IMG/VR virus record: IMGVR_UViG_2585427760_000003
Length of the DNA stretch: 11,750 bases
Strand: one strand, 5' to 3'
DNA from: a virus
Taxonomy: Duplodnaviria > Heunggongvirae > Uroviricota > Caudoviricetes
Below, one piece after another: positions 936 through 11,750 of the stretch; within the stretch, counting starts at the first letter, position 1, and every line of letters starts with the position of its first letter. The position numbers and the translations under genes are program-made. The notes below the pieces were generated by a model that was not told the DNA's origin, did no database searches, and saw only the letters and a program-made list of their open reading frames with translations.

Positions 936-1012
936 GCGCCCTTAGCTCAGTTGGATAGAGCAACGACCTTCTAAGTCGTGGGCCGCAGGTTCGAATCCTG
1001 CAGGGCGCGCCA
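936..1012 (+). tRNA. argU: tRNA-Arg (anticodon UCU)
   Basis: 77-nt cloverleaf GCGCCCTTAGCTCAGTTGGATAGAGCAACGACCTTCTAAGTCGTGGGCCGCAGGTTCGAATCCTGCAGGGCGCGCCA; acceptor stem GCGCCCT/AGGGCGC, anticodon loop CTTCTAA with TCT at 970-972, T-loop GTTCGAATC, 3' CCA. Confidence 0.95.
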
Positions 1013-1027
1013 TTACAATTCAATCAG

Positions 1028-2191
1028 TTACGCCTTCTTTATATCCTCCATAATTCCAGAGTGGGACATATTTGGGACATTATCACCAAAAATGTCGTCT
1101 ATTTTCCTCGCATGCTCTGTCAAATGATTAGGCGCAAGGTGAGCATACCTACGAACCATTTCTATGGACTCCCATCCGCCCATTTCCTGAAGCACTGATA
1201 ATGGGACGCCTGACTGAATCAGCCAGCTTGCCCAGGTGTGTCTGAGGTCATGGAAACGGAAATCTTCAATTCCTGCACGACGACAAGCTGATAGCCATGA
1301 TGTCTTGCTGTCGATGCGCATCTTCCTGACCGCAGGCGTTGATGTTCCATCTGCTCGCTTAGCCGCCTTGGTATGTACAAACACCCATTTGTGATGCTTG
1401 CCTATTTGATCACGCAACACTTTACAGGCGGTATCGTTCAGCGCCACACCAATGGCGCGGTTTGATTTGCTCTCTTCTGGATTCACCCAGGCAACTCGTC
1501 GCTGCATGTCGATTTGTTGCCATTCCAGATTTATGATGTTCGACTTTCTCAGACCAGTTGCCAGCGCAAACTTGACGACAGATTTCAGTGGTTCGGGGCA
1601 CTCATCAATAAGGCGTTTTGCTTCCTCCTTTTCCAGCCATCTGACTCGCTTGTTTCTGACCGCTGGTATCTTGATGACAGGCGCTTTTTCCAGCCACTTC
1701 CAGTCGCGTTCTGCAGCACGGAGAATGGCCTTTATCATGGCAAGATGCTTTGCCTTTGTCTGAGTTGATACTGGCTTTGGTTCATAAACAGGCAGTTCTT
1801 TACCTTTCCTGATGGCGGCCTGAACTTTCTGTTTCCATATTTCTTTCGTCTTTCTGTTATGCATTCTGCTTACAGCAGAGTAAATCTTTGCCTCCGAGAT
1901 ATCTTTAAGCCTTATACCCTCAAAATGTTCAAGCCAGAACTCAATCCGGCTTTTATCTGAATCGAGAGATTTTTTATCAGCTTTTTCCTCAAGCCATCTT
2001 AGGCAGGCCTCTTCAAAAGTGACATCAGGTAAATCCCCTAGCTTTTCTACTCGCCAGAGTTCTGCTTTTCGCTTGTCGTGCAACTCCTGAGCTTGCCGCT
2101 TGTCCTTTGTGCCAAGAGATTCCTTAATTCGTTTCCCGCCCGGGAGCGAATACGAGGCATACCATATTTCATTTCTGCGGAAGAGTGACAT
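1028..2191 (-). CDS. intD: Prophage integrase, tyrosine recombinase family (DLP12 IntD-like), 387 aa
   Basis: 387-aa minus-strand ORF immediately adjacent to the tRNA 3' end; C-terminal catalytic region with [11 protein letters not shown] and VRRYAHL (catalytic Tyr) motifs; N-terminus [35 protein letters not shown]. Confidence 0.93.
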
Positions 2192-2715: not shown

Positions 2716-2934
2716 TCACAGTCCCCATTGTTTGTTCTTAAGTTCGATCTCCTCCTGGCAACTCGCACAAGTCCGACAACCCTGAACAGCCAGGCGTCTT
2801 CGCTCATCTATCGGATCGCCACACTCACAACAATGAGTTGCGGATACAGTCTGGTAGTTCAGACGACGCATTTTTATTGCTGTATTGCGCTGTAATTCTT
2901 CGATTTCTGATGCTGAATCAATGATGTCTGCCAT
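2716..2934 (-). CDS. TraR/DksA-family C4-type zinc-finger protein, 72 aa
   Basis: Translation contains CECGDPIDERRRLAVQGCRTCASCQ, matching the TraR/DksA signature (compare F-plasmid TraR CEACGNPIPEARRKIFPGVTLCVECQ from memory). Confidence 0.75.
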   Translation of the reverse strand: MADIIDSASEIEELQRNTAIKMRRLNYQTVSATHCCECGDPIDERRRLAVQGCRTCASCQEEIELKNKQWGL

Positions 2935-2985
2935 CTTTCATTAATCCCTGAATTGTTGGTTAATACGCTTGAGGGTAAATGCGAA

Positions 2986-3011
2986 TAATAAAAAAGGAGC
3001 CTGTAGCTCCC
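2986..3011 (-). terminator. Candidate rho-independent terminator or attenuator on the minus strand, upstream of the TraR-like gene
   Basis: Minus-strand RNA GGGAGC-UACAG-GCUCCU followed by UUUUUUAUUAUU; short stem (5-6 bp), so weak; lies inside a 29-codon minus-strand ORF (2941-3030). Confidence 0.4.
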
Positions 3012-3161
3012 TGATGATTTTGCTTTTCATGTTCACCGTTCCTTAAAGACGCCGTTCAACATGCCGATCGCCATGCTTAAATGAGTCGGTGTGAATCCCA
3101 TCAGCGTTACCGTTTCGCGGTGCTTCTTTAGTATCTGGCTGAAAGAGGGGGTTATTAAGGC

Positions 3162-4318: not shown

Positions 4319-5401
4319 TTAGAACTGGTAAACCATACCTACAGCAACGATATCATCGGTAGCAACGCCAGATGCTTTCGTGAAATCGCTCTTATCAATC
4401 AGGTTGATTTTGTAGTCAACAAAAGTGGACATATTTTTGTTGAAGTAATAGGTTGCACCTACATCAACATATTCAACCAGGTCCTGATCACCCCAAACAC
4501 CCAAGTCTTTTCCTTTAGAATGCAGGTAAGCAACGGATGGACGCAGGCCGAAGTCGAACTGATATTGTGCAACAGCTTCGAAGTTTTGTGCTTTGTTGGC
4601 AATATGGTTATTACCAAAAACAGTCATGTTCTGGGTTTCAGAATAGGTGGTGGCCAGATAGATGTTGTTCGCATCATATTTCAGACCAGCTGCCCATACT
4701 TCAGCATTTTGACCAGAAGCATTCAGACCGTTGTTACCGTAGATAACCTGATTATTAGTGCGATCAGATTTAGCATAGGTTGCACCCACGCCGAATCCTT
4801 CATACTCATAAGTAGTTGAGAAACCGAAACCATCGCCATTAGCTTCAGTTACTTCATTTCGGTCATTTTTGCCCTGATACTGAGCTGCAAAGTTCAGGCC
4901 ATCAACCAGACCAAAGAAGTCGTTGTTACGATAAGTTGCAACACCTGTGGTGCGACCAGTCATGAACACATCTGTTTGGGTCCAGGTATCGCCACCGAAT
5001 TCTGGCAGAACGTCAGTCCACGCACCGATGTCGTATGCTACACCGTAGTTACGGCCGTAATCGATTGAGCCGTAGTCACCGAATTTCAGGCCAGCGAAGG
5101 CAAGACGGGTTTTATCTTTGGAGGAACCTTGAGATTCAGCGCGGTTGCCTTTGAATTCATATTCCCACTGACCGAAACCAGTCAGTTGATCGTTGATTTG
5201 GGTTTCACCTTTGAAGCCAAGACGGGCATAAGTAGTATCACCATCATCTGCATCATTAGAGGAGAAGTAGTGCTTAGCATTAACTTTCCCGTACAGATCC
5301 AGCTTGTTACTGTCTTTATTATAAATTTCAGCTGCCTGAGCAGACATCGCCATCAGTACTGATGCAGCTACAGCAGAAATTGCCACTGTTAATTTTTTCA
5401 T
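4319..5401 (-). CDS. nmpC: Outer-membrane general porin NmpC (OmpC/OmpF/PhoE family), apparently intact, 360 aa
   Basis: Signal peptide [23 protein letters not shown] then [16 protein letters not shown]; porin motifs throughout; C-terminal ...VGMVYQF typical of beta-barrel porins; placed on the opposite strand between Q and the lysis genes as in DLP12. Confidence 0.9.
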
Positions 5402-6190: not shown

Positions 6191-6687
6191 TGCCTCCATC
6201 ATTACGAAAAGCTGTTGCTGCTGCTATTGGTGGCGGGGCTATTGCTATAGCATCTGTGTTAATCACTGGCCCAAGTGGTAACGATGGTCTGGAAGGTGTG
6301 AGACATAATCCTTACAAAGACATAGTTGGTGTATGGACTGTATGTTACGGGCATACAGGAAAAGACATCATTCCCGGTAAAACGTATACCGAAGCAGAGT
6401 GCAAAGCCCTCCTGAATAAAGACCTTGCCACTGTCGCCAGACAAATTAACCGGTACATCAAAGTCGATATACCGGAAACAACGCGCGGCGCTCTTTACTC
6501 GTTCGTCTACAACGTGGGTGCTGGCAATTTCAGAACATCGACGCTTCTTCGCAAAATAAACCAGGGTGATATTAAAGGCGCATGTGATCAGCTACGGCGC
6601 TGGACATACGCTGGCGGTAATCAATGGAAAGGACTGATGACTCGCCGTGAGATTGAGCGTGAAGTCTGTTTGTGGGGGAAACAATGA
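6190..6687 (+). CDS. rrrD: SAR endolysin (T4-lysozyme-like muramidase with N-terminal signal-anchor-release domain), 165 aa
   Basis: N-terminal Gly/Ala-rich hydrophobic SAR segment [20 protein letters not shown] followed by lysozyme catalytic region [23 protein letters not shown]; start overlaps the essD stop (TAATG). Confidence 0.9.
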
Positions 6688-7142
6688 GCAGAGTAACCGC
6701 GATTATCTCCGCTCTGGTTATCTGCATCATCGTCTGCCTGTCATTGGCTGTTAATCATTACCGTGATAACGCAATCGCCTACAAAGAGCAGCGCGATAAC
6801 AAGGCCAGTGAACTGGAGAAGGCGAACGCCACCATCGCTGACATGCGGAAGCGTCAACGTGATGTAGCAGAACTCGACGCAAGATACACAAAGGAGCTTG
6901 CTGATGCTAACGCGACTATCGAAAGTCTCCGTGCTGATGTTTCTGCTGGGCGTAAGCGCCTGCAAGTCGCCGCCACCTGTGCAAAGTCAACGACCGGAGC
7001 CAGCGGCATGGGCGATGGAGAAAGCCCAGGACTTACAGCAGATGCTGAACTCAATTATTACCGTCTCCGAAGTGGAATCGACAAGATAACCGCGCAGGTT
7101 AACTACCTGCAGGAATACATCAGGACGCAATGCCTGAAATAA
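6684..7142 (+). CDS. rzpD: Spanin inner-membrane subunit Rz (i-spanin), 152 aa
   Basis: ATG overlaps the rrrD stop (ATGA); N-terminal TM segment [20 protein letters not shown] then coiled-coil-like periplasmic domain; ORF track starts at an upstream GTG (6672). Confidence 0.85.
6904..7089 (+). CDS. rzoD: Spanin outer-membrane lipoprotein subunit Rz1 (o-spanin), embedded in the +1 frame of rzpD, 61 aa
   Basis: AAGGAG SD at 6891-6896, ATG at 6904; lipoprotein signal [20 protein letters not shown] with lipobox Cys, proline-rich mature region [13 protein letters not shown]; fully nested inside rzpD. Confidence 0.75.
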
Positions 7143-7174
7143 TTTTTTTGCAAATCACAAAGTCCATTTAATGA

Positions 7175-7198
7175 GCCTCGCGATGCGGGGCTTTTTTT
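7175..7198 (+). terminator. Rho-independent terminator after the lysis cassette
   Basis: GCCTCGC-GAT-GCGGGGC stem-loop (7 bp including one G-U) followed by TTTTTTT, ~33 bp downstream of the rzpD stop. Confidence 0.65.
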
Positions 7199-7437
7199 AC
7201 ATCTGAATTTCACAGCGCATCTCACGCGCATATTACATCACCCGAGCCTTTCAGAAAGTTGAGCCTGAGAACTGCCGTATATGGTGGCGACCATCTCGGG
7301 GCGGCTTTTCTGTGAGACAGGCTCACTTTCTAAAAGGTAAAGACGCTATGAACCAATTAGAAGAAAAGCTTCAAAGAATGATTTCCTTATACAAGGAAGA
7401 TAACTGCCAAAAAGTTCCTTAAAACATCGCAGAGTTA

Positions 7438-7836
7438 ATGGAATTGGCAAGTGAATTTTCTGGCATGCTTAAGTCGTCAGGTGTTCGGTCAGCGTTCTTT
7501 GTTGAAATGCTGATGCACGGCGGACTTATGGCAACAATGAGACGTGTAATGGAAGACCAGAGAAAAGAACCTCCTCAGGTATACGTTTTGTCATCGAAGA
7601 AAACTGGGCTAACCAAAATTGGGTATTCATCCAACATTCCACAACGCATCAAATCGCTTGGCAACTCTGGACCAGACTGCTTGAAGCTTGAGTGCCTGAT
7701 CCCTGGTGGAAGAGAAACTGAAAACATGCTTCATCGCAAATTTGCCGCAAAGAGAAAGCACGGTGAATGGTTCGCCCTGTCCAAGGATGACATTGAGGGA
7801 TTGAAATCTGTAGCGATTACTTCTGATGGCTATTAA
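7438..7836 (+). CDS. T5orf172 / GIY-YIG-like domain protein, 132 aa (cargo gene at the position occupied by bor in lambda)
   Basis: C-terminal ~85 residues QVYVLSSKKTGLTKIGYSSNIPQRIKSLGNSGPDCLKLECLIPGGRETENMLHRKFAAKRKHGEWFALSKDDIEGL fit the T5orf172 pattern as I recall it (YVL...KIGYT/S...R...EWF); weak SD; an upstream in-frame 24-codon ORF (7348-7422) is separated by a single TAA. Confidence 0.6.
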   Translation: MELASEFSGMLKSSGVRSAFFVEMLMHGGLMATMRRVMEDQRKEPPQVYVLSSKKTGLTKIGYSSNIPQRIKSLGNSGPDCLKLECLIPGGRETENMLHRKFAAKRKHGEWFALSKDDIEGLKSVAITSDGY

Positions 7837-8514
7837 TGCTTGTTTAGAGCAATTTTCATAACAACTCTTCATTACAAAGCCCATCTACTGGTGGGCTTGA
7901 TAATGAAACCGTGATTTACATCCCCACAATCCGGGTATGTAAAAGATAGTTCAGGCGAGAACGGATTTAACTAAATCTGTGCGCCACCAGTTAACGGCAG
8001 TACCACGAAACAACCCAAGCCAGTAAGTGGGGAAATAACACCGGCAGCCACTGAAAGATGAACCTCCTGCCTTATGGCAAAAAAGATTCTTTGTGGTGGC
8101 GGACTGATGGAAAGACATCCTAATTTCAGCCAAACATTGAAGGAGTTGTTATGTCAGCAGAAGGTTTCAATAACCCATCAAAATTCCGGGATGAGTGGGA
8201 TAGCAGCGTAAAGAGTAAGTGATGCCATCACAAAAGCCATTCCCTACAGAGTGGCTTTGATAATGGCTTATACCCTACACGGGATAACTTAACTGATATC
8301 CTTTTTAAAGGATAAAGGTATTCAAGCCTGACACATCATGCGCTGTATCGTCGCCGTATTCCCGTATTAACAGAGACCGTAGCCCGACGGGGAACTCCTT
8401 CTGCGCGAGTGTGCGGGAATAATCAAAAACGATGCACACCGGGGTTACCGGGTACACATATTTCATCATGCCAGCGAGTCCGGTTCTGGCACGGAAGAAA
8501 CCGGACGTTATGAT

Positions 8515-8925
8515 TTAGTGCGGAAATATTTGTGTAGTGTTCTGAATGTTCTCAGTAAAGAGTAATGAATTATCAAAGGTATAGTAATACCTTTTGTTTT
8601 CGTGGATATTTGTAATCCATCTGAAAACCCCTGCTGTAGCAAGATTTTTCCTGTATTCGTAAAATGATAACTCTCCTGATTTGAATCCTTTTAATGTGGT
8701 TTCTATAAGGCATTTATTTTTTGAAAATCTTACATTTACAACCTTACCCTGTCCTTTTATTAAAACCGTATTATCGTTTTCAAGAACAAGATGAATATTC
8801 TCTGTGGCTAAATAGTAAATGTAATGTGAGACATTGTGACGTTTTAGTTCAGAATAAAACCAGTGATAGTTTAAATTATTTCGCACTTTATCGAATATTT
8901 GTTTAAAAATGGCAACCTGAGCCAT
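8515..8925 (-). CDS. Hypothetical AT-rich protein, 136 aa, no signal peptide or TM segment; possibly equivalent to the protein annotated in K-12 DLP12 as YbcV (recollection, unverified)
   Basis: Minus-strand ORF in a visibly AT-rich segment; likely start at the second Met (8925, GGAAGG-like SD 7 nt upstream) giving [31 protein letters not shown]...; Tyr/Asn-rich, soluble-looking. Confidence 0.6.
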
Positions 8926-8982
8926 TGTAGTACCTTCCATGTGATATGAAGGTACCTAGTCTGCACGATTATCTAAATTGCT

Positions 8983-9216
8983 TCAATCTGGTCTGACCTG
9001 CTTTCTGAGCAATTCAGTAATGTCACTCTTTTCTTTGTTTGCTTCAGGCGAAACTCTTTTTTCTGAGCACAGTCTTCGGCGGCAGGCTTCAATGACCCAG
9101 GCTGAGAAATTCCCGGACCCTTTTTGATCAAGAGCGATGTTAATTTGTTCAATCATTTGGTTAGGAAAGCGGATGTTGCGGGTTGTTGTTCTGCGGGTTC
9201 TGTTCTTCGTTGACAT
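8983..9216 (-). CDS. Small putative ribbon-helix-helix (CopG/Arc-like) DNA-binding protein, 77 aa
   Basis: Basic N-terminus MSTKNRTRRTTTRNIRFPNQMIEQINIALDQKGSGNFSAWVIEACRRRL fits a beta-strand/helix/helix RHH layout; codirectional with and 57 bp upstream of the 136-aa gene; ~200 bp from cosN. Confidence 0.5.
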   Translation of the reverse strand: MSTKNRTRRTTTRNIRFPNQMIEQINIALDQKGSGNFSAWVIEACRRRLCSEKRVSPEANKEKSDITELLRKQVRPD

Positions 9217-9359
9217 GAGGTTGTCCCGTATTCAGTGTCGCTGATTTGTATTGTCTGAAGTTGTTTTTACGTTAAGTTGATGCAGATCAATTAATATGAT
9301 ACCTGCGTCATAATTGATTATTTGACGTGGTTTGATGGCGTAGATGCACGTTGTGACAT

Positions 9360-9604
9360 GCAGATGATAATTATTATCATTTTGCGGGTCCTTTCCGGCG
9401 ATCCGACAGGTTACGGGGCGGCGACCTCGCGGGTTTTCGCTATTTATGAAAATTTTCCGGTTTAAGGCGTTTCCGTTCTTCTTCGTCGTAACTTAATGTT
9501 TTTATTTAAAATACCCCCTGAAAAGAAAGGAAACGACAGGTGCTGAAAACGAACTTTTGGGCCTTTGTCGTTTCCTTTCTCTGTTTTTGGCCGTGGAATG
9601 AACA
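9360..9604. other. Lambda-type cos site: cosQ/cosN/cosB, with the cosN 12-nt cohesive-end sequence GGGCGGCGACCT at 9416-9427
   Basis: 9380-9600 is near-identical to my recollection of the lambda genome left end and preceding right end (..GTTACG GGGCGGCGACCT CGCGGGTTTTCGCTATTTATGAAAATTTTCCGGTTTAAGGCG...); inverted Nu1-binding R-site-like repeats AGAAAGGAAACGACAG / CTGTCGTTTCCTTTCT at ~9523-9580. Confidence 0.85.
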
Positions 9605-10429
9605 ATGGAAGTCAACAAAAAGCAGCTGGCTGACATTTTCGGTGCGAGTATCCGTACCATTCAGAACTGGCAGGAACAGGGAATGCCCGTTCTGCGAGGC
9701 GGTGGCAAGGGTAATGAGGTGCTTTATGACTCTGCCGCCGTTATAAGATGGTATGCCGAAAGGGATGCTGAAATTGAGAACGAAAAGCTGCGCCGGGAAG
9801 TTGAAGAACTGCGGCAGGCCAGCGAGACAGATCTCCAGCCAGGGACTATTGAGTACGAACGCCATCGACTTACGCGTGCGCAGGCCGACGCACAGGAGCT
9901 GAAAAATGCCAGAGACTCCGCTGAAGTGGTGGAAACCGCATTCTGTACTTTCGTGCTGTCGCGGATCGCAGGTGAAATTGCCAGTATTCTCGACGGGATC
10001 CCCCTGTCGGTGCAGCGGCGTTTCCCGAACGGCACGGTCGATGTGTTCCGCGGCTGGGTCAGCAGTATCGGTAAGGCGGTGACGGCGAAGGAAGTGATTA
10101 CCCGCACGGTGAAAGTCACCAACGTAGGACGTCCGTCGATGGCAGAAGATCGCAGCACGGTAACAGCGGCAACCGGCATGACCGTGACGCCTGCCAGCAC
10201 CTCGGTGGTGAAAGGGCAGAGCACGACGCTGACCGTGGCATTCCAGCCGGAAGGCGCAACCGACAAGAGCTTCCGTGCGGTGTCTGCGGATAAAACAAAA
10301 GCCACCGTGTCGGTCAGTGGTATGACCATCACCGTGAAAGGTGTTGCTGCAGGCAAGGTCAACATTCCGGTCGTATCCGGTAATGGTGAGTTTGCTGCGG
10401 TTGCAGAAATCAACGTCACCGCCAGTTAA
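9605..10429 (+). CDS. nohD: Chimeric ORF: terminase small subunit Nu1 homolog (residues ~1-140) fused in frame to the C-terminal Ig-like (Big_2) domain of major tail protein V; 274 aa
   Basis: [46 protein letters not shown]...[14 protein letters not shown] matches lambda Nu1; from ...[60 protein letters not shown]... to ...AEINVTAS matches the lambda gpV C-terminus from memory; switch at ~10018-10027 within shared CGTTTCCCG. The nohD symbol applies to the Nu1-like part only. Confidence 0.85.
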
Positions 10430-10444
10430 TCCGGAGAGTCAGCG

Positions 10445-10795
10445 ATGTTCCTGAAAACCGAATCATTTGAACATAACGGTGTGACCGTCACGCTTTCTGA
10501 ACTGTCAGCCCTGCAGCGTATTGAGCATCTCGCCCTGATGAAACGACAGGCAGAACAGGCGGAGTCAGACAGCAACCGGAAGTTTACTGTGGAAGACGCC
10601 ATCAGAACCGGCGCTTTTGTGGTGGCGATGTCCCTGTGGCATAACCATCCGCAGAAGACAAAGCTGCCTTCTATGAATGAATTGGTGCTCATACGCACTC
10701 CGTTGCGATTGGTTCACATGGACACACCATCACCGTTAACGCTGCTGGTAACGCGGAAAACACCGTCAAAAACATCGCATTTAACTATATTGTGA
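10445..10795 (+). pseudogene. Tail assembly chaperone G remnant (first ~79 codons) joined out of frame to the 3' end of a side tail fiber (stf) gene
   Basis: MFLKTESFEHNGVTVTLSELSALQRIEHLALMKRQAEQAESDSNRKFTVEDAIRTGAF..WHNHPQKT..PSMNE matches lambda gpG; from ~10681 a different frame reads [41 protein letters not shown] (stop 10804-10806), the His-x-His-rich C-terminus of Stf-type tail fibers. Confidence 0.8.
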
Positions 10796-10805
10796 GGCTT
10801 GCATA

Positions 10806-11390
10806 ATGGCATTCAGAATGAGTGAACAACCACGGACCATAAAAATTTATAATCTGCTGGCCGGAACTAATGAATTTATTGGTGAAGGTGATGCATATAT
10901 TCCGCCTCATACAGGTCTGCCAGCAAACAGTACCGATATTGCACCGCCAGATATTCCTGCTGGCTTTGTGGCTGTTTTCAACAGTGATGAGGCATCGTGG
11001 CATCTCGTTGAAGACCATCGGGGTAAAACGGTTTATGACGTAGCGTCAGGGGACGCGTTATTTATTTCTGAACTCGGTCCGTTACCGGAAAATGTTACCT
11101 GGTTATCGCCGGAAGGGGAGTTTCAGAAGTGGAACGGCACAGCCTGGGTGAAAGATGCAGAAGCAGAAAAACTGTTCCGGATCCGGGAGGCGGAAGAAAC
11201 AAAAAACAGCCTGATGCAGGTAGCCAGTGAGCATATTGCGCCACTTCAGGATGCTGTAGATCTGGAAATCGCAACGGAGGAAGAAACCTCATTGCTGGAA
11301 GCCTGGAAAAAGTATCGGGTGTTGCTGAACCGTGTTGATACATCAACTGCACCTGATATTGAGTGGCCTACGAACCCTGTCAGGGAGTAA
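10806..11390 (+). CDS. tfaD: Tail fiber assembly protein Tfa, 194 aa, intact
   Basis: [79 protein letters not shown]... is near-identical to lambda Tfa with scattered substitutions; ATG overlaps the stf-frame stop (TAATG). The tfaD symbol is by synteny with DLP12. Confidence 0.85.
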
Positions 11391-11444: not shown

Positions 11445-11750
11445 CTATTTTTTCCCTGAAGCGGAAAACATTACTACAGTACCTTGAACCTTGGTTTTAA
11501 CATTCTCGAAATGCTCTGAGAGTATATGTGTTAAGCCTTCTTCGGAATCTTTTGTGTTTGAAAAGATGCCTTTCTGATTGTAAATGCGCATCAGTTTTTG
11601 ACCGAAGCTATTGTGCACAACTCCATCGCCAAGAATTGTGGCTCCGTATAGAGTTCCATCGTCAGTTAAGGCCTGCGCCGCATTGCGTATTACACAGCTT
11701 TTTGTAGATATATTTCCAGGCAGGCAGTGAAGAAGGTAAAACATGGAAAT
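11445..11750 (-). CDS. Hypothetical protein, C-terminal portion (5' end probably beyond the window edge)
   Basis: Minus-strand ORF open to the window edge (two further in-frame codons upstream of the ATG at 11744); no family recognised; position corresponds to the gene convergent with tfa in lambdoid prophages. Confidence 0.4.
   Translation of the reverse strand: MSMFYLLHCLPGNISTKSCVIRNAAQALTDDGTLYGATILGDGVVHNSFGQKLMRIYNQKGIFSNTKDSEEGLTHILSEHFENVKTKVQGTVVMFSASGKK

Follow-up and report, generated by a model that had tools for sequence, protein, structure and literature searches.

Why should a prophage remnant that has no capsid gene and no large terminase subunit still carry an intact lambda-type cos site? 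The question is raised by a stretch of DNA of 11,750 nucleotides (hereafter the window), in which an initial annotation, made from the sequence alone, described an essentially lambda-like cos just upstream of a domain derived from Nu1. It was suggested there that the element might be packaged in trans by a helper phage, either in the manner of a satellite or with transduction of the flanking DNA, that it might titrate the helper's terminase, or that cos had simply been preserved, by chance or by selection. In our opinion, it is very probable that the feature is the cos-nohD segment of a cryptic lambdoid prophage of the DLP12 (qsr') type, and that it is a passive relic. Below we describe the element, its cos site and the deletions next to it, and then consider what could happen to such a site in a cell in which a lambda-like phage is growing.

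A DLP12-type prophage at argU

From position 300 to its last base (11750) the window matches the chromosomes of E. coli strains 14EC033 and 100416 at 100% identity, which allows the element to be followed beyond the window. Its left boundary lies in argU, the gene of tRNA-Arg(UCU), found with ARAGORN on the plus strand at 936-1012. The 3' 47 bp (968-1014) represent the attL core, so that tRNA gene and core together occupy 936-1014. These 47 bp recur as an exact direct repeat at a distance of 14,385 bp in the identical genome, where the attR copy lies beyond the window, between ompT and envY, and the two copies bound an element of 14.4 kb. Next to attL is the integrase gene intD (1028-2191, minus strand; taken from the open reading frame list and the RefSeq annotation), which is intact, encodes 387 amino acids and is 99.6% identical to its counterpart in K-12 DLP12.

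In strain 100416 the left part of the locus reads fimZ, tRNA-Arg, intD, remnants of an early region, rusA, ylcG, quuD, a porin of the ompC/nmpC type, essD, rrrD and Rz. The right part continues with a GIY-YIG gene, a DUF1398 gene (ybcV), ylcI, cos, a 'terminase small subunit (pseudo)', an Ig-like protein, gpG', a tail protein', tfa, a methyltransferase, appY and ompT. By annotation and BLAST, this order is collinear with DLP12 of K-12 MG1655 (fimZ-argU-intD...rusA-quuD-nmpC-essD-rrrD-rzpD-ybcV-ylcI-cos-Nu1'...tfa-methyltransferase-appY-ompT), and the xis region is in the same pseudogene state as in K-12. The annotation of the identical genome lists no gene for replication, a repressor, a capsid or TerL within these 14.4 kb; the earlier observation that capsid and large terminase subunit are missing is therefore correct not only for the window, but for the whole att-bounded element. 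It is the combination of the argU site, intD and a collinear gene order without head or replication genes that leads us to assign the element to the DLP12 type.

Immediately to the left of cos is a gene of the ylcI/ynfO family (DUF3950; 8983-9216, minus strand; identified with Pfam and BLAST). It forms the left flank of a block of about 1 kb (9054-10030) which is common to lambda-like phages and within which cos is located.

The cos site

The 12-nucleotide cohesive-end sequence of cosN, GGGCGGCGACCT, where the staggered nicks are made, is found at 9416-9427 on the plus strand. It matches the lambda group at 12 of 12 positions, is the single exact copy in the window, and aligns with the 'cos site' annotated in phage DE3, a lambda derivative. 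There are 0 mismatches across the 22-bp nicking region GTTACGGGGCGGCGACCTCGCG either, hence the point differences in cosN that had been considered as a potential obstacle to cleavage do not exist. To the left of cosN, at 9386-9392 (plus strand), is the heptamer GGGTCCT, which represents cosQ. Both its sequence and its distance from cosN (23 bp, in a gap-free alignment) are the same as in lambda/DE3. The role of cosQ is in the termination of packaging (PMC4669245).

To the right of cosN, a pattern search recovered the three TerS binding sites of cosB, all equal to those of lambda: R3 at 9468-9483 (plus strand; core CGTTTCCGTTCT at 9468-9479), R2 at 9520-9535 (minus strand, thus inverted relative to R3 and R1; core 9524-9535) and R1 at 9569-9584 (plus strand; core 9569-9580). 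The core pattern CGTTTCCKTTCT has three copies in the window against 0.09 expected, and none of 200 shuffled sequences reached three. R2 and R1 together make a 26-nucleotide inverted repeat, as the initial annotation had indicated. Order, orientation and spacing of the three cores are all as in lambda, that is, R3, I1, inverted R2 and R1 (PMC4669245). The interval between R3 and R2 (9484-9519, delimited by alignments), which in lambda holds the IHF site I1 (PMC4669245), has two changes relative to lambda, G for A at 9488 and C for T at 9517, and both are common to phages PhiR26_1 and PhiR42_1. Judging from its position, this interval is a candidate for IHF binding.

The resemblance extends over the surrounding region. 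Over positions 9300-9720 the identity is 96% with lambda/DE3 and 99.5% with PhiR26_1; the gap-free alignment with the cos region of DE3 has a column identity of 97% over 321 bp, and in bases 9400-9487, which include cosN and R3, there is no difference from lambda. The 17 substitutions relative to lambda within the 321 bp all occur in deposited phage genomes, and none of them falls in a subsite. Over 291 bp around cos the only base that differs from PhiR26_1 is at position 9361, where the base of the window is that of PhiR42_1. Each nucleotide of the site therefore has a counterpart in a phage genome deposited as complete. We take the PhiR phages to be viable because their genomes were deposited as complete and with the host named. 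Lambda-relative positions can be obtained by subtracting 9415 from those of the window; they were counted on the aligned lambda/DE3 records rather than on J02459.

Given that every subsite equals that of lambda or of deposited phage genomes, the cos of the window is, judged by its sequence, a competent substrate for a terminase of lambda specificity. The description of the site as lambda-like holds up in full.

A Nu1::gpV fusion and two deletions

Nu1 indeed starts at 9605, just past cos, as had been noted. However, the open reading frame is more than a retained DNA-binding domain. Pairwise alignments and Pfam identify it (9605-10429, plus strand, 274 amino acids) as an in-frame fusion of Nu1 residues 1-141 to residues 114-246 of gpV, with matches to Phage_Nu1 at residues 1-145 (E = 1e-88), Phage_TTP_12 at 135-180 and Big_2 at 189-267. 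The Nu1 part is identical to lambda Nu1 at 138 of 141 positions (98%; the differences are K48R, A75T and L132I) and covers the winged-HTH DNA-binding domain and the central oligomerisation region, while the gpV part consists of the end of the tail-tube domain and the Ig-like Big_2 domain. What has been replaced by gpV 114-246 are Nu1 residues 142-181, which are the C-terminal 40 residues that bind TerL according to the domain map of TerS (PMC9026076). RefSeq annotates the fusion as a pseudogene plus an Ig-like CDS. Most likely, to judge from these domains, the fusion protein would retain DNA binding, would be unable to recruit TerL, and would be an inert by-product of the deletion. An in-frame fusion has a one-in-three chance of arising by accident. 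Nevertheless, with the frame open and the start codon kept, a function is allowed.

The junction within this reading frame is seen in BLAST against DE3, where window positions 9346-10030 match nu1 and 10019-10681 match V-G. The two matches overlap by 12 bp (10019-10030) at an imperfect microhomology, TTCCCGAAC, read as RFP in either gene. The DNA missing at this point amounts to about 8.7 kb and comprises the 3' end of Nu1, A, W, B, C/Nu3, D, E, FI, FII, Z, U and the 5' part of V. Further to the right, gpG', a tail assembly chaperone, is represented by its first 79 codons only (10445-10681, plus strand; BLAST, pairwise alignment and Pfam), and at about 10681, codon 79 of G is joined to the 3' end of the side-tail-fibre gene stf, which makes a second deletion junction. 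From there to position 11750 the window agrees at 99.5% identity with strain E2865, in which this stretch comprises the 3' end of stf and tfa. The tail fibre assembly gene tfa itself (10806-11390, plus strand, 194 amino acids; Pfam Caudo_TAP and annotation) is intact, so that the tail-gene remnants of the element are V', G', stf' and tfa. A packaging run starting at cos would meet tfa as the first gene past the fusion remnants.

A simple scenario would account for this arrangement. An ancestral lambda-like prophage at argU would have lost the 8.7 kb through a microhomology-mediated deletion that joined codon 141 of Nu1 to codon 114 of gpV, a second deletion would have joined G to the end of stf, and cos, situated 600 bp to the left of the first breakpoint, would have escaped. 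If it is still undecayed, this would be because the deletion event was recent.

Distribution and decay at the locus

The core of cos (9370-9604), counted at a coverage of at least 80%, is present in 3982 of 5426 complete E. coli genomes, at a median of two places per genome. The 977-bp block from ylcI through cos to Nu1 is present in 3239 of the 5426, with nohD as the usual annotation. Thus, lambda-type cos sites, which about three quarters of the complete E. coli genomes carry, are potential sites of chromosomal breakage or recombination during lambdoid infection. The Nu1::V junction, on the other hand, is found at a query coverage of at least 80% in only 2 of the 5426 genomes.

Other genomes illustrate different states of the same argU/ompT locus. 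Strain LH13-b is 99.4% identical to the window over 8339-10030 and then continues into intact A, W, B, C, D, E, FI, FII, Z, U and V. Long tail modules are kept in E2865, E105, CP55_Sichuan and E110019, while K-12 has nohD and an A' fragment. In ChlosBP-23-1 and in the isolate OZ038590 what is left is an int'::tfa' scar without cos. Such scars make up 2 of 6 sampled argU/ompT loci, from a small sample of 8 spread hits of which 6 were at this locus. As the ybcY methyltransferase used as a marker is not locus-specific (2 of the 8 sampled hits lay in a prophage adjacent to potB), the fraction refers to the sample and does not translate into a genome-wide frequency of cos loss at argU.

These states can be arranged as a decay series, from a full prophage through a head-less remnant to a cos-less scar, and with such a series at hand the retention of cos requires no selective explanation. 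The rarity of the junction, a near-identical LH13-b with its head module and the existence of cos-less scars all favour chance and recency as the reasons why cos is retained here, with no need for selection.

A helper phage and a single cos

What might happen if a phage of lambda specificity grows in a cell with this element? We infer that its terminase, together with IHF, would bind R3, R2 and R1, nick the chromosomal cosN and stay on the right-hand end. The nicked cos would thereby provide a double-strand end that stimulates recombination between phage and prophage to the left of cos, and packaging would run rightwards via tfa, appY, ompT, cus and ent. That a helper terminase may cut at the window cos is plausible from the sequence of the site. 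Kotani et al. 1992 (Nucleic Acids Res 20:3357) reportedly saw the E. coli chromosome cut by lambda terminase at the DLP12/qsr' cos. In K-12, the region of DLP12 that is homologous to lambda holds cos, and recombination of the expected kind has been observed: the junctions of lambda-DLP12 recombinants cluster at cos, 10 of 19 lying immediately beside it (PMC3945230), which for K-12 DLP12 lends indirect support to binding and nicking by the phage terminase. In the same study (De Paepe et al. 2014) recombinants with DLP12 were a hundred-fold commoner than those with Rac or Qin, the nu1 of DLP12 was found to work in lambda, DLP12 did not excise during lambda infection of K-12, and cutting at the chromosomal DLP12 cos was itself worded as an inference ('might') (PMC3945230). 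The lambda-homologous block amounts to about 1 kb (9054-10030) in the window versus 3.3 kb in K-12.

It is the termination of packaging that poses a difficulty. Packaging starts at cosN with cosB, and its termination requires a downstream cosQ and cosN (Feiss et al., PMC4669245; likewise Murialdo & Feiss, PMC9026076). Uncut DNA that protrudes from the head blocks the attachment of tails (Chiang et al., PMC6687093), and a single chromosomal site should for this reason not allow a cos phage to transduce. In the approximately 60 kb downstream of cos in strain 100416, which contain tfa, appY, ompT, envY, nfrAB, cus, pheP and ent-fep, we found no match to the 22-mer, no exact 12-mer, and no cosN with up to 2 mismatches together with flanking sequence. 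Without a downstream cos, packaging from the window site would be unable to terminate, and the expected products would be abortive, tail-less heads rather than infectious particles. Packaging in situ by non-excised, excision-defective lambda prophages is documented to yield immature virions (Sternberg & Weisberg, as summarised in PMC8008629). An intact cos alone does not make a satellite; it takes a second cos, or else something that supplies concatemers.

Alternative explanations

Could the element nevertheless be mobilised like a satellite? Under this explanation, the 14.4-kb element would excise, multimerise and be packaged from cos to cos, for example as a 43-kb trimer, in the way of a cos-type PICI. 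Its integrase and cos are intact, the 47-bp attL and attR cores are both present, 14.4 kb is about the size of a PICI, and a trimer of 43.2 kb would fit a lambda head. Moreover, the PICI EcCICFT073 fills full-size capsids by skipping cos sites, and still transfers when pri-rep is deleted, although at a level of about 50 versus 8x10^3 (PMC6092414). We consider mobilisation of this kind very improbable all the same, and the suggestion made in the initial annotation is not supported: neither replication genes nor an ori, alpA or pri-rep are annotated, which means no concatemers; a second cos was not found in the approximately 60 kb downstream; the xis region equals the K-12 pseudogene; DLP12 of K-12 stays integrated while lambda infects (PMC3945230); lysis genes and tail-gene remnants are carried at an att site that full prophages use, which speaks against a PICI; and a deletion state present in 2 of 5426 genomes is unlike a spreading element. 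Transduction of the flanking DNA would do without excision. Cos-initiated packaging, resembling lateral transduction, would deliver appY-ompT-cus-ent at a useful frequency, and in its favour a competent cos points toward host genes 5.9 kb away, and the in-situ packaging by lambda prophages in the Sternberg & Weisberg work, to the extent that PMC8008629 summarises it, provides a precedent. But cos terminases require a second cos, and protruding DNA prevents tailing (PMC6687093, PMC4669245). The search of about 60 kb downstream found no terminating site, and strain 14EC033 has no other copy of the cos-Nu1 block, hence no resident helper of matching specificity. We therefore regard transduction at a useful frequency as highly unlikely, and this part of the original suggestion is not supported either.

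The two remaining explanations assign a benefit to cos or to the fusion. In one of them, the remnant acts as an anti-phage decoy, either because cos titrates terminase, or because the fusion protein occupies cosB or enters mixed oligomers with the helper's TerS but fails to recruit TerL, so that packaging of the lambda type is poisoned. The fusion is in frame, has the native start, and keeps the DNA-binding and oligomerisation regions while the TerL-binding C-terminus is gone, and PICIs do interfere through Rpp, which binds TerS (PMC9026076). Yet a single cos per chromosome would be a negligible sink against a replicating phage pool, and on this reckoning titration as it was proposed is quantitatively implausible. 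As for the protein, the fusion is limited to 2 genomes and is a pseudogene in RefSeq, any expression of it would probably be tied to late transcription, and the full-length nohD of K-12 DLP12 does not prevent lambda from growing and recombining (PMC3945230). A decoy is thus exceedingly improbable. In the other explanation, cos is kept by selection, for instance because a hotspot of cos-stimulated recombination, or transcription across the region, benefits the host or passing phages. It is true that cos-nohD is kept in many independently decayed DLP12 variants, including those of K-12 and the window, and that all subsites are unchanged in the latter. However, cos is absent from the int'::tfa' scars at 2 of the 6 sampled loci. 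When the window is compared with K-12 DLP12, the non-coding part around cos has an identity of about 96% (12 differences in 291 bp) and the flanks have 97%, thus cos is no better conserved than its surroundings, and in K-12 DLP12 the first base of R3 has changed from C to T. If recombination with live phages is frequent, it can in addition refresh cos without any selection on the host (PMC3945230). We give selection very little credence; of the two possibilities that the initial annotation had left side by side, chance or selection, it is chance that the evidence favours. One may still speculate that the remnant is not inert, Nu1(1-141)::gpV-Ig being a dominant-negative TerS that guards the host against phages of lambda specificity, or the att-bounded element (with int, cos, appY and ompT) being rarely excised and packaged as a 43-kb trimer by a lambda-like helper. 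Both seem to us hardly credible; the latter, if true, would turn decayed remnants of DLP12 into satellites which lack replication and carry ompT and appY along at low frequency.

Comparison with known systems

The passive relic that we prefer can be placed relative to four known systems. Cos-type PICIs, such as EcCICFT073 and others that hijack the terminases of lambda or phi80, share with the window element a small size (about 14-15 kb), an int gene, a lambda-like cosQ and cosN, and the absence of capsid and TerL genes. Those of Gram-negative bacteria have an att site free of prophages, no lytic or structural genes, alpA and pri-rep, and an rpp gene by cos with a non-lambda cosB (PMC6092414, PMC9026076); without pri-rep, their transfer drops about 100-fold (PMC6092414). 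The window element, unlike PICIs, has a true lambda cosB, lysis genes, tail fragments and a prophage att site. We therefore do not count it among the PICIs: the argU/ompT att site is also occupied by lambda-like prophages with complete head and tail modules (LH13-b, E2865, E105), essD, rrrD, rzpD, V', G' and tfa are all present in the element, and alpA, pri-rep and rpp are not annotated in its 14.4 kb, where the gene adjacent to cos is Nu1'.

With lambda itself, the element shares cosN, cosQ, the three R cores and all spacings, which are identical, as well as Nu1 residues 1-141 at 98%. It differs in that it has no partner TerL, no proheads and no second cos, and in that its Nu1 is without the TerL-binding C-terminus. 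The 'doc' particles of Sternberg & Weisberg (1975), as far as the secondary account of them goes, are alike in a single chromosomal cos and in rightward packaging into host DNA without a terminating cos. There, however, the prophage supplies its own terminase and heads, whereas the window element would depend on a helper.

The closest relative is the cos-nohD/nohB segment of DLP12 (qsr') in K-12. The two elements share the argU site, an integrase 99.6% identical, the gene order from rusA to ylcI-cos-Nu1 and from tfa-methyltransferase to appY and ompT, and a cos that lies inside the lambda-homologous block. They differ in how they decayed. K-12 has a full-length nohD (181 amino acids) and an A' fragment fused to tfaD, whereas in the window Nu1 is cut at residue 141 and followed by V(114-246) and G'. 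The early region of the window is much shorter and without emrE, ybcK, ybcL, ybcM and ybcN; nmpC, interrupted by IS5 in K-12, is intact in the window; a GIY-YIG gene stands in place of borD; and the cos of the window is nearer to the canonical one, given the change at the first base of R3 in K-12. As a discovery, the cos site means little, since the cos of DLP12 beside nohD has been known since the qsr'/DLP12 work, and in 2014 DLP12 was used to show that lambda acquires defective-prophage DNA, with junctions concentrated at cos (PMC3945230). What is new here, and rare, is the deletion state in which this known segment is found.

Deletions and extent of the element

The second deletion junction lies within 10445-10805 of the window, where the gpG gene ends after codon 79 and the terminal (3') part of a side-tail-fibre gene takes over at about 10681. 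Beyond this point, identity to the stf-tfa sequence of strain E2865, which has a long tail module at the same locus, is 99.5%. Since this junction is additional to the one that created the Nu1::gpV fusion, the remnant was formed by at least two separate deletions. The end of DLP12 that carries tfa and the class I SAM-methyltransferase gene (ybcY) also has a 99.4-99.7% identical copy in strains AR_0014 and 124611 (L009, L012), where it lies at the right-hand end of another lambdoid prophage, one adjoining potB. It is therefore a common prophage-end module, and not a marker specific to DLP12.

The 3' end of argU is repeated directly and exactly over 47 bp, at window 968-1014 and at 27054-27100 of L001, the locus record with the attR copy. 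This second copy is situated in the interval from ompT to envY, so the element enclosed by the att repeats has a length of 14,385 bp, with appY and ompT inside it. A trimer of this element would be 43.2 kb, inside lambda head capacity.

Surroundings of cos

R3, one of the TerS sites of cosB, is variable among relatives. It starts with CGTTTCC in both lambda and the window, with TGTTTCC in K-12 DLP12 (L003) and with CATTTCC in phage PhiR42_1 (L005), at the equivalents of window 9468-9469. The variants in the latter two suggest that the first two R3 positions are somewhat tolerant of change. A short way to the left of cosQ there is also an AT-rich near-palindrome, GATGATAATTATTATC (9363-9378), which is kept, with minor changes, in lambda and related phages.

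Comparison with related prophages

The early region of K-12 DLP12 (exoD...ybcO) is missing from the window. A 395-bp stretch of the window (2739-3133) has 94% identity to the lambda ea22 region (DE3 7144-7538); it is surrounded by early-region remnants, namely DUF4222, TraR/DksA-like and ZapA-like fragment sequences. The prophage has an intact porin gene of the nmpC/ompC type (4319-5401, minus strand), coding for 360 aa; the K-12 DLP12 counterpart is interrupted by IS5.

The Rz gene (6672-7142) and an embedded +1-frame ORF (6898-7089) with the lipobox LLGVSAC are the Rz1/RzoD spanin pair, and the lysis cassette appears to be intact. Between Rz and ybcV, K-12 DLP12, LH13-b and lambda have bor/iss on the opposite strand, while the window has a plus-strand GIY-YIG/T5orf172 (MUG113) nuclease-like ORF (7438-7836).

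At the left end, positions 1-299 are the terminal part of an IS1 element, with 99.7% identity to IS1A of strain LH13-b. Of the 210 codons of fimZ (295-756), IS1 leaves about the first 131, and the reading frame closes at the junction with '...FFPSETR*'. In E. coli strain 100416, which aligns to the window from position 300 on, fimZ is intact, in contrast to the IS1-truncated copy of the window.
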